Positions 24,978 to 27,134 of a stretch of 64,000 nt of DNA are shown in pieces. The DNA is from Escherichia phage Eryne: the sequence record PQ529420. One strand, written 5' to 3'. The notes under the pieces are model-generated. The model worked only from the letters and a program-made list of their open reading frames with translations, had not been told where the DNA came from and did not search any database. The position numbers and the translations under genes are program-made. Every line of letters starts with the position of its first letter. The first letter of the stretch is position 1.

Positions 24978-25498
24978 ACAACCTCCTCGTAATTGTTATT
25001 GTGTTTTACTGTCTCAACATACAATAAAGATTCCATCTGTAATACATTACCAGAAATAATAAACCCATAAGCCATTTCAGATGTGTCTATATCATATGCC
25101 CCGTCTTCCGGTTTAGCAAAGTGTAAAACTATTTCATCTGGGTTTTCTTCATCCCATAGTTTAGAAATTTTCCGAACCAGAATGTTAGCTAAAATAGTTG
25201 ACATTCGGGATAAAGCTGTATCCTCATATCTTTTAAAACCTAGCCAATAGAGGTTAAGAATTTCTACTTCTTCTTGTGTTAAGTTTTTGTCTAAAGTAAT
25301 CAGATCTGTAGAGCACGGCGTTTTTGTTGAACCTACTGTTACAAAACCTGGAGTGTTATGAAAAACAATCTTAACTTTATCACGTATAAAGTTTAAACCT
25401 TGTGCCTCAACTATATATTGTATTGTAGGTACAATATCGTTTGTTACATCAATAAAGCTATCTTTAATGACGCTTATATTATTTCTGGACAAGACCAT
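24974..25498 (-). CDS. hypothetical protein (174 aa)
   Basis: track ORF. Confidence 0.5.
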   Translation of the reverse strand: MVLSRNNISVIKDSFIDVTNDIVPTIQYIVEAQGLNFIRDKVKIVFHNTPGFVTVGSTKTPCSTDLITLDKNLTQEEVEILNLYWLGFKRYEDTALSRMSTILANILVRKISKLWDEENPDEIVLHFAKPEDGAYDIDTSEMAYGFIISGNVLQMESLLYVETVKHNNNYEEVV

Positions 25499-26057
25499 TC
25501 TCCTCTAAAATAGGTTTAATAAATTCGAAAATTTGTTTTTTACTTTTACCTCGAATATTAAAACAAGGAACATTAAACTTTTTAGCCAACATCCAAGCTG
25601 TTCTTGTACCACCTAAAGGATCTCCATTTTTATCTGTATTTGCACAAGCTAAAAGAAAACAAGATGGTTTTGGATTCTCAAGATCTCTGCCAAGAACTTG
25701 GTGGATATTTCTTTGATGTAATTTTTTAGCACCTTGAGATAATCTGTCCCAAGCTGGATGCAATTCTTTTGCATATTGCAAGGTTAGAGCATAGTTTACA
25801 CTATCTGGTCTGTCAAGAACAATAACCTCTCCCTCTATCTCATTACCTTTAAACGAAGGCCAAGGAATGTATATTTCTTTCTTTGTATTGTTTCCACTAT
25901 CATACACCCCGCATTCAAATGCGGAATCTGCACCTTCTGCTTTACCAGATCGTAAAATGAACCATGTAGATAACCATTTTGCAACAGCTACCATAGTGTC
26001 CCATTCTTCGTCTGTAATATCTCTGCTACCAACACCTGTGTAGAATAAATCGCTCAT
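25479..26057 (-). CDS. Rossmann-fold DprA/SLOG-like protein (putative)
   Basis: start moved to MSDLFYTGVGSR behind AAGGAG; GxGSR..T and SGxAEGADxxF pattern resembles DprA/Smf/LOG-type nucleotide-binding folds. Confidence 0.35.
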   Translation of the reverse strand: MSDLFYTGVGSRDITDEEWDTMVAVAKWLSTWFILRSGKAEGADSAFECGVYDSGNNTKKEIYIPWPSFKGNEIEGEVIVLDRPDSVNYALTLQYAKELHPAWDRLSQGAKKLHQRNIHQVLGRDLENPKPSCFLLACANTDKNGDPLGGTRTAWMLAKKFNVPCFNIRGKSKKQIFEFIKPILEENGLVQK

Positions 26058-26067
26058 GGTTTTCTCC

Positions 26068-26388
26068 TTAACAAGTAATATTGGGAATAATACTGGGAGT
26101 AACAATTGGAGTAATAGGGTACGTAAACCAAGGGCTTCCAATTTCCCAAGGACTATAAGGTGTACGAGGATCAAATGGAGGCGTTACTTGAGGCTTTTTC
26201 CAAATCTCCGCTAGTTGTTTCTTCCATTTATCCCTTGCTGTATCGTTATCTTCATCCAACTGTTCGTCATTATCTTTTATTTCTGATTTTGGAAATAAAA
26301 GCTCTTTGACTAACTCAACGTCTTCCGTTTCAATAGTAGTTTCTTTCGTAATATTCCCTACCGTCTCTTTAATTGTGACTTTATACAT
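26068..26388 (-). CDS. hypothetical protein (106 aa)
   Basis: track ORF; acidic N-terminal half, Pro/Trp-rich C-terminus. Confidence 0.45.
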   Translation of the reverse strand: MYKVTIKETVGNITKETTIETEDVELVKELLFPKSEIKDNDEQLDEDNDTARDKWKKQLAEIWKKPQVTPPFDPRTPYSPWEIGSPWFTYPITPIVTPSIIPNITC

Positions 26389-27134
26389 TAGTCCTCCTCT
26401 AAAGTAGAATAAAATTGTAACGTATTTGAATCATCAAAATATGCAAAGGTTAAATTACCATTGAAGCAAGATCCTGTATCCATATATACCCTATTACTGC
26501 TAATTACAGGTTTAGGAACATAAGAATGCCCGTGAAATACATAATCTACTCCTGAAACTCTAGGAAGAAGAATCCCTTCAAGGGCGCAATCTATCATATC
26601 ACGATCCCACATTAAAGATTCTGTGAATCGAGATACTTGCTCTTTATTCATATTCAAACAAAATGGCAAAACTTCTGTCACTGGTAAATGTTCCAAAACT
26701 GAAGGATACCCACCGTGAATAAAGCCTAGTTTCATATCACGATAATTGACAACAAGTACAACAGGTAAATCTTCTAGCATCAAAGCAAGAGCAGTTGCAC
26801 CCTCTTCTCCACACTCGTCTAGAACTGTATGGCCTCCGTTCTGAAACCAACATTCGTAATATCGTCTATCACCTTCTAGCAACCCTTTAATCATCATATC
26901 TTCATGATTTCCACGAATACCATAACGATTTAGCTTTCTGGTGAATTCAACAACACAACGAAAATTCTGCTTGCCGCGATCTGTAAGATCTCCTAAAGAT
27001 ACAACAACATCTTGATCTCGGATACCTAAAGTATTAACACCTTTCTGGTACAAATCAAAGCAACCATGTAAATCACCAATAATAAACAGGTCTTGATCAT
27101 CTTTTACACTAATTTCTTGATATACTAGCATCAA
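26388..27134 (-). CDS. Ser/Thr protein phosphatase (PPP-family metallophosphoesterase)
   Basis: GDLHG, GDLTDRG and GNHE motifs in canonical order; RBS GAGGAG. Confidence 0.8.
   Translation of the reverse strand: MMLVYQEISVKDDQDLFIIGDLHGCFDLYQKGVNTLGIRDQDVVVSLGDLTDRGKQNFRCVVEFTRKLNRYGIRGNHEDMMIKGLLEGDRRYYECWFQNGGHTVLDECGEEGATALALMLEDLPVVLVVNYRDMKLGFIHGGYPSVLEHLPVTEVLPFCLNMNKEQVSRFTESLMWDRDMIDCALEGILLPRVSGVDYVFHGHSYVPKPVISSNRVYMDTGSCFNGNLTFAYFDDSNTLQFYSTLEED

Follow-up and report, generated by a model that had tools for sequence, protein, structure and literature searches.

Gene organization of the locus

The window analysed here is a 64,000-nucleotide stretch of Escherichia phage Eryne (sequence record PQ529420), which belongs to the Justusliebigvirus group of phi92-like E. 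coli myoviruses. The features discussed are listed in Table 1. The genes for a 192-residue SLOG-domain protein and a lambda-type phosphatase lie, like all genes at this locus, on the minus strand. The SLOG gene is preceded by a ribosome-binding site, AAGGAG, located 7 nt 5' of the ATG; a longer, TTG-started version of the reading frame is used by no annotated relative. Both reading frames are real genes and chance ORFs are ruled out: the region is 98–99.8% identical across 55 phage records, the SLOG protein has thousands of homologues and its structural model is of high confidence.

The two genes had been described as adjacent from the sequence alone; strictly they are not, because a 106-residue ORF lies between them. 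This ORF (cluster c8) has no match in Pfam. It is found 5' of the SLOG gene, either directly or one small ORF apart, at 13 loci in two lineages, including lineage L049, in which the SLOG protein is only 38% identical. The 174-residue ORF that overlaps the 3' end of the SLOG gene is kept only in close phi92-like relatives (seven loci) and so is probably no general partner. The 108-residue ORF at the phosphatase start is also restricted to close relatives (seven loci).

Table 1. Features of the locus and NAD+/ADP-ribose genes in the window.
Feature	Position	Strand	Basis and remarks
Sir2-family protein, NAD+-using	21088..21900	-	Cluster c20; Sir2/sirtuin label in phages muut and PaulScherrer
ORF, 174 aa	24974..25498	-	phrog_8569; shares 20 nt with the SLOG gene 3' end
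Stand-alone DprA-type SLOG domain protein, 192 aa	25479..26057	-	ATG at 26057, stop at 25479; PHROG 768; phi92 gp047 homologue
ORF, 106 aa, between phosphatase and SLOG genes	26068..26388	-	phrog_15301, E = 3.5e-54; cluster c8
Lambda-type (PPP/NinI-like) binuclear metallophosphatase, 247–248 aa	26388..27134	-	Motifs; Pfam, PHROG and PDB matches; start at 27134 from TTG or at 27131 from ATG (GenBank records use ATG)
ORF, 108 aa	27131..27457	-	phrog_15398; overlaps the phosphatase start
Adps-like (PRPP-synthetase-like), first gene of NARP1-type NAD+ reconstitution pair	56050..56943	+	Cluster c14
Namat-like (NAMPT-like), second gene of NARP1-type pair	57015..58748	+	Cluster c11

Fold and classification of the SLOG protein

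The AlphaFold model of the 192-residue protein (pLDDT 97) consists of one domain, residues 5–186, with the three-layer alpha/beta Rossmannoid architecture and parallel sheet of the SLOG superfamily. Using Foldseek, it matched only structures of this superfamily, similarity extending over several clades (DprA, MCP, LOG, ShosA and ThsA), and the best matches were to DprA. The five top PDB profile matches of the family were likewise to DprA every time. The sequence-only reading had pointed to a DprA/SLOG-like Rossmann fold, and profile, Foldseek and model all agree with this; no structure of an unrelated family appeared among the matches of the model. On profile and model evidence, the protein is a minimal single-domain SLOG (SMF/DprA-LOG) Rossmannoid of the DprA type.

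The sequence relationship is remote. The window protein has no Pfam match at E <= 1 and falls below the gathering threshold of DprA (PF02481, 29.6 bits). Pfam DprA is matched weakly by 59 of 75 family members (best E = 3.6e-6), and the relatives with listed scores reach just 16–21 bits against this cut-off. PsyrA is matched by 51 and ShosA by 47 of the 75. No match to the Pfam YpsA (DUF1273) or YAcAr models was found in the family, which places it outside the YpsA-like/ThsA-type class. A single-sequence PDB search returned NSA2 only (E = 0.76), a spurious match. As single-sequence Pfam and PDB searches were uninformative, the assignment relied on a profile and on a structural model.

Using hhalign, the family profile aligned with E. 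coli Smf alone (probability 8.5%) and with a 16-sequence Smf alignment (probability 34%) over no more than the first 38–44 residues; the second alignment, which is shallow (at least 68% identity), covered the N-terminal 44. Any detectable similarity to DprA in sequence is confined to the first 45 residues. PF25317, PF02481 and PF17782 are all found in E. coli Smf and its relatives; the usual DprA architecture is absent from the phage protein, which has neither a SAM-like N-domain nor a C-terminal winged helix. The HMM of PHROG 768 is matched over its full length (E = 2.2e-60, residues 2–186 against profile positions 2–184 of 191), and in Justusliebigvirus the gene already bears the label 'DprA-like DNA recombination-mediator'. 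The PHROG name, 'DprA-like DNA recombination-mediator protein', is an annotation based only on remote similarity.

Conserved residues of the putative pocket

Two motifs, G-S/T/A-R and F/L/Y-x-x-R-N/D, have been published for the DprA pocket (PMC3950713). In the window protein the first is G10-S11-R12, in the loop following strand 1. This segment belongs to the GVGSR stretch (residues 8–12) that had been picked out from the sequence together with SGKAEGADSAF (residues 37–47), both of which are present as described. It aligns with GTR/GSR of five DprA structures, the counterpart in Helicobacter pylori DprA (HpDprA) being Gly50-Arg52. The second motif is matched in pattern by L113-H114-Q115-R116-N117, on the helix that comes ahead of the fourth core strand (residues 134–138), with Phe140-Asn144 as the HpDprA counterpart; this correspondence is taken from the pattern and the order of secondary-structure elements, since sequence alignments to DprA stop short of the region and the Smf alignment was too shallow to map it. 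Across 75 family sequences G10, R12, R116 and N117 are invariant, and conservation of S11 and L113 is 90% or higher. H114, Q120 and S132 are further invariants, and G150 aligns with HpDprA Gly164.

The conserved blocks are Y6–R12 (after beta1), R36–D44 (after beta2), I62–F69 (after beta3), L113–G123 (helix) and G149–A154 (after beta4). Judged from the topology, these residues would come together around a single pocket, at the sheet's C-terminal edge. A family-specific insert at about residues 60–105 carries conserved IPW..F and HPAW motifs. The LOG catalytic motif PGGxGTxxE is absent: the segment reads GGTRTAWML, without Glu, and the family consensus is K-G-G-T-R-T-A-W. There is also no invariant acidic residue after strand 3 in the family, so that a hydrolase is not predicted by precedent.

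Distribution, fusions and gene neighbourhoods

The family is large, with more than 6,000 clusters at 50% identity, and nearly purely phage-borne. It occurs in 1,245 of 50,697 phage records (~2.5%, about 1 in 40). A motif-pattern scan of bacterial genomes, derived from a 12-sequence SLOG alignment, gave three loci only, a lower bound given the narrow patterns. One bacterial homologue (L087) has a C-terminal region with Cas4/RecB-nuclease-like Cys motifs, as judged by eye. Literature searches turned up no experiments on SLOG or DprA-like proteins of phages.

Fusions were counted among the top 150 cluster representatives and one further homologue (P0074). Four proteins join SLOG to NADAR (P0121, P0122, P0137 and P0205) and four to DUF4326 (P0074, P0212, P0221 and P0198); in others the partner is a Macro domain (phrog_2072) that is DarG-like by fold. 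NADAR, including T4 gp30.3/AdfN, strips ADP-ribose from guanine in DNA and counters DarTG1 (PMC11543638, PMC11825919). An apparent SLOG–NMNAT fusion in Klebsiella phage OY979426, labelled 'nicotinamide-nucleotide adenylyltransferase', was discarded, since the coordinates recorded for the CDS disagree with the actual ORFs.

Genes of the NARP1 pathway, the biochemistry of which has been described (bioRxiv 10.1101/2024.02.11.579819) and which is extended by the Macro domain of Adpp (bioRxiv 10.64898/2026.01.28.702374), are found beside SLOG genes in several phages. The order is SLOG-Adps-Namat-DUF4326 in L052, with a 4-nt overlap between SLOG and Adps, Adps-Namat-x-SLOG in L021 and L036, and RNA ligase-PNK-Adps-Namat-Macro-x-x-SLOG in Pakpunavirus. 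In L051 and L062 NADAR lies at most three genes from SLOG, and some relatives come right after an RNA ligase gene (rnlB in T4-like phages). In raw counts made with no control gene, an NAD+/ADP-ribose gene lies within 6 kb of SLOG in 11 of 33 lineages and none does in the other 22; the commonest neighbour is PhoH (10 of 33).

In the window phage no NAD+/ADP-ribose gene adjoins the SLOG gene, the immediate neighbours being uncharacterised ORFs and the phosphatase. The Adps-like gene, 30 kb away, is annotated as 'ribose-phosphate pyrophosphokinase' in phage muut and falls in the BLAST cluster that also holds the Adps genes flanking SLOG genes of other phages; it may belong to the same toolkit as the SLOG gene. 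The representative of the Namat-like cluster matches Pfam NAPRTase (E = 8e-38), and the muut annotation is 'nicotinamide phosphoribosyl transferase'. The Sir2 gene is located 3.6 kb downstream of the SLOG gene and transcribed in the same direction, and might be linked to it. A search of the 64-kb window for NADAR, phrog_2072-type Macro and DUF4326 gave none. In muut (~117 kb of the 146-kb genome searched) an Adpp-like Macro and a DUF4326 fragment were found, both outside the region corresponding to the window.

The neighbouring phosphatase

By its sequence the phosphatase is a genuine homologue of lambda phosphatase. All three PPP motifs (GDxHG, GDxxDRG and GNHE) noted earlier are present in the translation, as GDLHG, GDLTDRG and GNHE. 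The protein scores 50.5 bits against Pfam Metallophos (cut-off 21.5), matches PHROG 246 'NinI-like' (E = 7e-76) and aligns with lambda phosphatase (PDB entry 1G5B) over residues 4–231 (E = 4e-30). The metal-binding motifs of lambda phosphatase (NinI) are all kept; the window protein differs by some 27 additional residues and by an insert near residues 150–175. A weaker match to the putative Ap4A hydrolase 2QJC (E = 1e-6) and a partial match to phrog_8238 'RNA ligase' were also observed.

Its role may simply be that of an ordinary protein phosphatase of the phage. By analogy with the in vitro activities of lambda phosphatase, which has 2',3'-cyclic phosphodiesterase activity, and of CthPnkp, whose RNA-repair phosphatase has the same fold (PMC2190708), it may instead act on cyclic and terminal phosphates of nucleotides or RNA.

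The sequence-only reading had treated the two proteins as a functional pair. If they formed a dedicated unit of two genes, the SLOG protein would, for example, bind a nucleotide or RNA end from which the phosphatase removes phosphates, or the two would jointly rewire phospho- and nucleotide signalling of the host. The order phosphatase-(c8)-SLOG is kept in every phi92-like locus, and a looser version of it is seen in L049, L045 and L074, the SLOG proteins of which are 37–46% identical; the in vitro activity and fold just mentioned, the partial 'RNA ligase' match and the position of SLOG genes after rnlB would also suit such a unit. However, a phosphatase lies within 6 kb of SLOG in only five of 33 lineages (raw counts, phage kinship ignored), the genes between the two differ among loci, no phosphatase–SLOG fusion occurs among ~20 multidomain relatives, and NinI-like phosphatases are frequent among phage genes. 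The pairing is thus weakly supported, the more so given the intervening gene, and a dedicated unit is improbable; the linkage is best read as lineage-limited, ordinary local synteny.

Proposed function and alternative explanations

We tentatively propose that the SLOG protein is the base- or nucleotide-gripping module of a phage toolkit for ADP-ribose counter-defence and repair, a reading that approaches an even chance. Its pocket would grip an adenine- or ribose-containing ligand that host defences make from NAD+, either an ADP-ribosylated base on single-stranded phage DNA or RNA (DarT-type damage) or a soluble ADP-ribose derivative. The gripped ligand would be removed or recycled to ADP-ribose, from which NARP1 enzymes would then rebuild NAD+. 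In many relatives the chemistry would be carried out by the fused or adjacent hydrolase (NADAR, DarG-like Macro or DUF4326). The protein stands alone in this phage and would therefore act in trans or carry an activity of its own that is not of the LOG type. The proposal is in line with a computational prediction made in 2022 (PMC9503650), with the counterpoint that viral SLOGs were mostly YpsA-like there, whereas the present family scores best with DprA. The fold, motifs, family size, viral restriction, fusions and gene neighbourhoods are observed features of the family; the ligand, binding or catalysis, and the anti-defence role are what we infer.

It is possible, although unlikely, that the stand-alone protein is itself a new anti-defence activity, either an enzyme or a high-affinity trap. 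The enzyme would cut an NAD+-derived product at an N-glycosidic or ribose linkage and release free ADP-ribose for recycling to NAD+ by NARP1; an ADP-ribosylated base on single-stranded DNA or RNA and a cyclic or conjugated ADP-ribose signal are candidate products for enzyme or trap. We similarly doubt a role confined to soluble NAD+-derived immune signals (Thoeris 2'/3'cADPR, His-ADPR), as enzyme or sponge and with no part in nucleic-acid metabolism. Such a role was proposed for viral SLOGs in 2022 (PMC9503650), but the present family scores best with the DprA clade and keeps its first ssDNA-pocket motif and, by pattern, the second, Pfam YpsA/YAcAr matches and the LOG catalytic motif are lacking, and for two of the three identified fusion partners (gp30.3-type NADAR and DarG-like Macro) the best-known role is de-ADP-ribosylation of DNA.

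The conserved first ssDNA-pocket motif and the putative second would suit a DprA-like recombination mediator, which would bind and protect ssDNA in replication and recombination and load a RecA-type recombinase. DprA is the best match by sequence and by Foldseek, the DprA-like ShosA binds ssDNA and RecA (PMC12961424), and L087 carries the nuclease-like region described above; sporadic viral SLOG fusions to nucleases and helicases are listed in the 2022 survey (PMC9503650), and the phage encodes an RdgC-like exonuclease and a DNA ligase elsewhere. We nevertheless consider a mediator rather unlikely. The SAM and winged-helix domains are missing, DprA similarity in sequence ends after the first 45 residues with the Pfam threshold failed, the partners that recur in fusions are ADP-ribose hydrolases rather than recombination proteins, and no recombinase was found among the annotated neighbour clusters at 80 loci, annotation covering the larger of 109 clusters. 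The earlier idea of interference with DNA uptake or recombination proteins found no backing either, as nothing tied the SLOG protein or the phosphatase to competence or recombination proteins. The other idea of that reading, interference with nucleotide-based host processes, fits in so far as NADAR, Macro and DUF4326 fusions and NARP1 operons are concerned, and not as classical second-messenger signalling. Very improbable is an orphan antitoxin mimic that would neutralise toxin–antitoxin defences with DprA-like antitoxins, such as ShosTA and PsyrTA. We downgraded it because the HMM matches are weak (none in PADLOC for the window protein, best E of 2e-6 to 3e-5 for relatives) and the SAM domain is absent; ShosA function requires this domain, dimerisation and RecA binding.

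The SLOG fusions and operons put the family among genes of the NAD+/ADP-ribose arms race (NARP1, Adpp, NADAR/AdfN and DarG-like Macro), the experimental dissection of which is under way. Should binding or processing of an ADP-ribose adduct be its role, phages would have an extra counter-defence component, and a widespread annotation, the 'DprA-like recombination mediator' label of PHROG 768 in hundreds of phage genomes, would be corrected. If it has an anti-defence activity of its own, this would be a further widespread input branch to phage NAD+-reconstitution pathways, and the DprA-like 'ssDNA pocket' would really be an ADP-ribosyl-nucleotide pocket. The SLOG gene is carried by BASEL phages, PaulScherrer and EmilieFrey among them, that are amenable to genetics, so that the question can be put to a direct test.

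Comparison with known systems

The DprA/Smf domain (H. pylori DprA, PDB entries 4LJK and 4LJR; PF02481) and the window protein share the SLOG fold, an alignable beta1-loop-alpha1-beta2 N-terminal region (GSR ... SGxAxGxD) and a Gly-rich turn at the position of HpDprA Gly164. The corresponding pocket of Helicobacter DprA holds one flipped-out nucleotide of single-stranded DNA. Unlike DprA, the phage protein is a lone domain without SAM and winged-helix/DML1 domains, and its family is phage-borne in a context of NAD+/ADP-ribose rather than competence genes.

ShosA, the DprA-like antitoxin of ShosTA (PDB entry 8ZVA), comprises a SAM domain and a dimerisation helix at the C-terminus, and its gene lies beside that of a PRTase toxin. 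All of these are missing from the phage protein, whose gene adjoins no PRTase or RecQ-like toxin gene, which sets it apart from the ShosA/PsyrA class.

The SLOG domain of the Thoeris sensor ThsA (PDB entry 7UXS), which binds an ADP-ribose-derived signal, and LOG/PpnN, where LOG cleaves N-glycosidic bonds in AMP-type nucleotides, have the superfamily and the pocket position in common with the window protein. Their structural scores are below those of DprA and MCP, and the phage protein has neither PGGxGTxxE nor a fused effector domain.

A close precedent, alike in kind of evidence and in conclusion, is the prediction that viral SLOGs process ADP-ribose derivatives (Iyer, Burroughs, Anantharaman & Aravind, 2022; PMC9503650), in which most were put in a YpsA-like clade and cleavage of the adenine–ribose bond of cADPR-type signals was proposed. 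Stand-alone phage SLOGs, Macro, NADAR and DUF4326 fusions and co-occurrence with NAD+ salvage were reproduced here; the present family differs in scoring as DprA-like and in lacking the LOG catalytic motif. Beyond that survey, the present analysis adds the explicit linkage to NARP1 operons and the finding that the phrog_2072 partner is DarG-like.

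Locus and gene layout

The window comes from a Justusliebigvirus, a phi92-like Escherichia coli myovirus of roughly 146 kb; region 24900-27500 shares 99.8% identity with vB_Eco_J-01 and JLBYU50 and 98.3% with phi92. The SLOG (SMF/DprA-LOG superfamily) region lies in a long minus-strand transcription block, and the GC skew switches near 20 kb and near 56 kb. All motifs that the sequence-only reading had claimed for the phosphatase and the 192-residue protein were present in the window translation. The two genes, described there as adjacent, are nearby and on the same strand, with one ORF between them.

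Four unannotated 'Campylobacter phage' records of about 146.4 kb with C. jejuni as stated host (MG065639, MG065645, MG065656 and MG065689) share 98.8% identity with the E. coli phi92-like region described here; their host is likely mislabelled or they are contaminated. In the window, a homologue of a 190-residue protein labelled 'histidyl tRNA synthetase' or 'aminoacyl-tRNA synthetase' in relatives has two in-frame stops upstream, leaving only a GTG-started ORF of 152 residues, and is therefore truncated or N-terminally divergent. The label, used twice in the genome of the closely related phage muut, looks like over-annotation for so small a protein.

Coordinates of the features in the window
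Feature	Position	Strand	Remark
Sir2-family gene	21088-21900	-	
174-aa ORF	24974-25498		20-nt overlap with 3' end of 192-aa gene
192-aa SLOG protein	25479-26057	-	AAGGAG ribosome-binding site 7 nt ahead of ATG
106-aa ORF (c8)	26068-26388	-	between phosphatase and 192-aa gene
Lambda-type phosphatase, 247/248 aa	26388-27131/27134	-	
108-aa ORF	27131-27457	-	
Homologue of 190-aa protein	27468-28049	-	152-aa ORF, 27468-27926
P-loop kinase-like ORF	51265-51669	-	cluster includes Pakpunavirus gene upstream of Adps
RNA-ligase-like ORF	51670-52314	-	cluster includes Pakpunavirus gene upstream of Adps
Small metallophosphoesterase	52604-53155	-	cluster representative from locus L066
Adps-like PRPP-synthetase homologue	56050-56943	+	
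Namat/NAMPT-like gene	57015-58748	+	

Fold and clade of the 192-residue protein

As a lone query the protein had no match in Pfam or the PDB. Its match to PHROG 768 ('DprA-like DNA recombination-mediator protein') was full-length (E = 2e-60), and the gene belongs to a known, already annotated family of putative function. The family profile placed DprA structures in the top five positions against the PDB, with marginal E values of 0.04-0.2 covering the first ~45 residues only. An AlphaFold model (pLDDT 97, pTM 0.92) was compared with the PDB using Foldseek; HpDprA ranked first (E = 1.7e-5) and the top 50 hits all belonged to the SLOG superfamily (DprA, Moco carrier protein, ShosA, ThsA, LOG, YpsA, PpnN). 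The DprA/SLOG-type fold proposed earlier was thus borne out, and fold prediction, the check set for that proposal, returned SLOG and not an unrelated family. Among 75 aligned homologues, Pfam gave a weak DprA match in 59 and LDcluster4 in seven, the YpsA and YAcAr models matched none, and PADLOC matched the DprA-like antitoxins PsyrA (51/75) and ShosA (47/75). At the sequence level this points to the DprA clade of SLOG.

The signatures of ssDNA-binding DprA domains are G-S/T/A-R and, in the helix that leads to the following strand, F/L/Y-x-x-R-N/D; Arg52, Phe140, Arg143 and Asn144 of DprA form a pocket taking one flipped-out thymine (Wang et al., PMC3950713). Both patterns are found in the 192-residue protein, as G10-S11-R12 and L113-H114-Q115-R116-N117. 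In the 75-sequence alignment G10, R12, H114, R116 and N117 are invariant, as are G38, A40, G42, D44, Q120, G123, S132, G149, G150 and T151, while conservation at S11 and L113 is 90% or higher. The GGT turn was aligned with Gly164 of HpDprA. From pattern and topology we infer that the second motif is equivalent to that of DprA and that the conserved residues would gather in one pocket. The LOG catalytic motif PGGxGTxxE is absent from the protein, which reads GGTRTAWML there.

Family distribution

An exhaustive profile search gave 6,051 clusters at 50% identity (E <= 1e-3), 2,272 of them at E <= 1e-30. By tblastn the family was detected in 1,245 of 50,697 phage records, including phi92-like, rV5-like and Pakpunavirus phages, several T4-like genera, N4-like roseophages and jumbo phages. 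A motif-pattern scan confirmed three loci in 185,579 bacterial and archaeal species (one genome each), a lower bound given the narrow patterns, and 255 in IMG/VR; the PHROG 768-type family therefore appears essentially viral. Rare bacterial-genome copies were seen in a Desulfosarcina MAG (L088, 5992-7417), with an NAD+-dependent DNA ligase before the SLOG gene and a DUF4326-like ORF after it, and in an Armatimonadota MAG (L087, 5971-7248). In the latter, SLOG is followed in one fused protein by a C-terminal region bearing CxxC...CxxC motifs, which by eye looks like a Cas4/RecB-type nuclease, and the gene adjoins a C5-methyltransferase and a Fic-like ORF.

Domain fusions and gene neighbourhoods

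Fusions were surveyed in the 150 best cluster representatives, roughly 20 of them multidomain proteins, and in one further homologue, P0074. NADAR is fused in four proteins (P0121, P0122, P0137, P0205), two of them polyvalent proteins of ~1,480 residues with extra SLOG domains, DUF4326 in four (P0074, P0212, P0221, P0198), PHROG 2072 (a DarG-like Macro by fold) in three and PHROG 9995 in two. NADAR strips ADP-ribose off guanine in DNA, whereby T4 gp30.3 (AdfN) defeats DarTG1, and DarG is its thymidine-specific counterpart (PMC11543638, PMC11825919, PMC11125620); DUF4326 is a predicted remover of ribose-linked phosphates (PMC9503650). All identified partners except PHROG 9995 are therefore known or predicted to act on ADP-ribose. 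PHROG 9995 forms the N-termini (about 125 residues) of P0208 and P0239, carries no Pfam or functional annotation and could be a further domain concerned with ADPr or nucleotides.

ORFs within 6 kb on either side of the SLOG gene were called and clustered for the 80 closest IMG/VR loci, and the larger clusters were annotated. Lineages (33) were defined by clustering SLOG proteins at 60% identity; counts are raw, ignore kinship and have no control gene, and for lineage 5 they take in just the genes no more than 6 kb from SLOG. Within 6 kb, PhoH was found in 10 lineages, a ClpP-like gene in nine, Namat in six, Adps, Adpp-type Macro and lambda-type phosphatase in five each, and NADAR and DUF4326 in two each; 11/33 had at least one NAD/ADPr gene. 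Adps and Namat constitute the NARP1 pathway from ADPR and nicotinamide to NAD+ (bioRxiv 10.1101/2024.02.11.579819), and the associated Macro protein, Adpp, converts ADPR-1''P to ADPR (bioRxiv 10.64898/2026.01.28.702374). Gene orders were SLOG-Adps (4-nt overlap)-Namat-DUF4326 (L052), Adps-Namat-x-SLOG (L021, L036), RNA ligase-PNK-Adps-x-Namat-x-Macro-x-x-SLOG (L081, L046 and the Pakpunavirus Adele), NADAR-3 genes-SLOG (L051) and SLOG-x-NADAR (L062). In the T4-like phages CC31 and Raoultella M21a, SLOG directly follows rnlB, overlapping its end by one base.

In a Klebsiella phage record (OY979426.1, L084) the deposited CDS coordinates and products are off the real ORFs, most CDS are flagged as pseudogenes and a 'nicotinamide-nucleotide adenylyltransferase' label lies over the SLOG gene and the ORFs after it; the record seems to carry a shifted annotation.

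NAD+/ADP-ribose and RNA-repair-like genes elsewhere in the lineage

The window SLOG gene has no neighbouring NAD/ADPr gene, and NADAR, DarG-like Macro and DUF4326 were not found within the 64 kb. The toolkit is carried dispersed in this phage lineage, with NARP1 and Sir2 both inside the window. A NARP1-type pair, named 'ribose-phosphate pyrophosphokinase' and 'nicotinamide phosphoribosyl transferase' in muut, is located where transcription direction switches. Beyond the window, muut gp066 (L097, 30566-31282; 238 residues, annotated only as 'phosphatase') has an N-terminal extension of about 100 residues and a C-terminal Macro close to Adpp (cluster HMM E = 1.3e-45), which suggests that phi92-like phages may have a split NARP1-AP system. 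At about 18233-18735 of L097, also beyond the window, the C-terminal half of DUF4326 (CxCxPxxCHGD) overlaps gp082 in a reading frame other than that annotated, which a sequencing error, a frameshift in the gene or programmed frameshifting could explain.

The Sir2-family gene, present here in a lytic phage, may serve in NAD+-consuming modification; two ORFs follow it, one labelled 'putative aminoacyl-tRNA synthetase' in PaulScherrer. An RNA-repair-like trio occupies about 51265-53155 (-), each member clustering with SLOG neighbours of other phages.

The lambda-type phosphatase

To judge from its matches to Pfam Metallophos (50.5 bits, cut-off 21.5), PHROG 246 'NinI-like' (E = 7e-76) and lambda phosphatase 1G5B (E = 4e-30, residues 4-231), the phosphatase is an ordinary lambda-type PPP enzyme. 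Weaker matches to the putative Ap4A hydrolase 2QJC and the middle of PHROG 8238 'RNA ligase' are a reminder that nucleotides and RNA ends are also substrates of this fold. The RNA-repair phosphatase of CthPnkp has the fold of lambda-Pase, which is active as a 2',3'-cyclic phosphodiesterase (PMC2190708).

The order phosphatase-c8-SLOG is kept in all phi92-like loci. Looser linkage was seen in three other lineages with differing spacers: phosphatase-DUF4326-x-x-c8-SLOG (L049), phosphatase-x-SLOG (L074) and phosphatase-4 small ORFs-SLOG (L045). No phosphatase-SLOG fusion occurred among the top 150 representatives. Because of the lineage count (5/33), the varying spacers and the absence of fusions, the linkage was treated as lineage-limited synteny, though more than nothing. 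The dedicated pair put forward in the sequence-only reading did not hold up and is improbable; a nucleotide or RNA-end substrate common to both proteins is a weak possibility.

Interpretation and comparison with known systems

The SLOG family is an abundant viral family with a DprA-type pocket domain; its partners in recurrent fusions or operons are ADP-ribose hydrolases and enzymes that reconstitute NAD+, joined in some phages by RNA-repair genes. We tentatively propose that the protein grips an NAD+-derived adduct, nucleic-acid-bound or soluble, which would then be either removed or converted back to ADPR. In one variant, in keeping with the DprA motifs and with NADAR and DarG-like proteins as partners, it would be a base of single-stranded nucleic acid that carries ADP-ribose; in the other, which suits the NARP1 and Adpp operons, it would be a soluble derivative of ADPR. 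Both would end in free ADPR. This combined model seems quite possible, if somewhat short of probable. A sponge or hydrolase of soluble signals only is unlikely; an antitoxin mimic is highly improbable.

Of the earlier interpretation, the fold and the nucleotide theme are retained, and the phosphatase pairing and the DNA-uptake idea are not. The family is well suited to testing as a component of phage NAD+/ADP-ribose counter-defence; the pairing is not its attraction. Processing of ADPr derivatives by viral SLOGs is not a new idea, as Iyer et al. (2022) came to that prediction from contextual evidence of a similar kind (PMC9503650). New here are the placement in the DprA clade, the cases of NARP1 operons and the recognition of PHROG 2072 as DarG-like. 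No experimental study of any PHROG 768-type family member was found in the literature.

A true recombination mediator, as the PHROG 768 label implies, is distinctly unlikely. Compared with DprA proper, the 192-residue protein falls under the Pfam threshold and has neither a SAM nor a winged-helix domain, and profile-profile alignment with the E. coli Smf family covered 44 residues only (probability 34%). The phage family also has its own insert, spanning residues ~60-105 and marked by conserved IPW..F and HPAW motifs, and additional invariant polar residues (H114, Q120, S132). The DprA-like motifs taken with these differences suggest a family predicted to work through a DprA-like pocket, yet a family apart.
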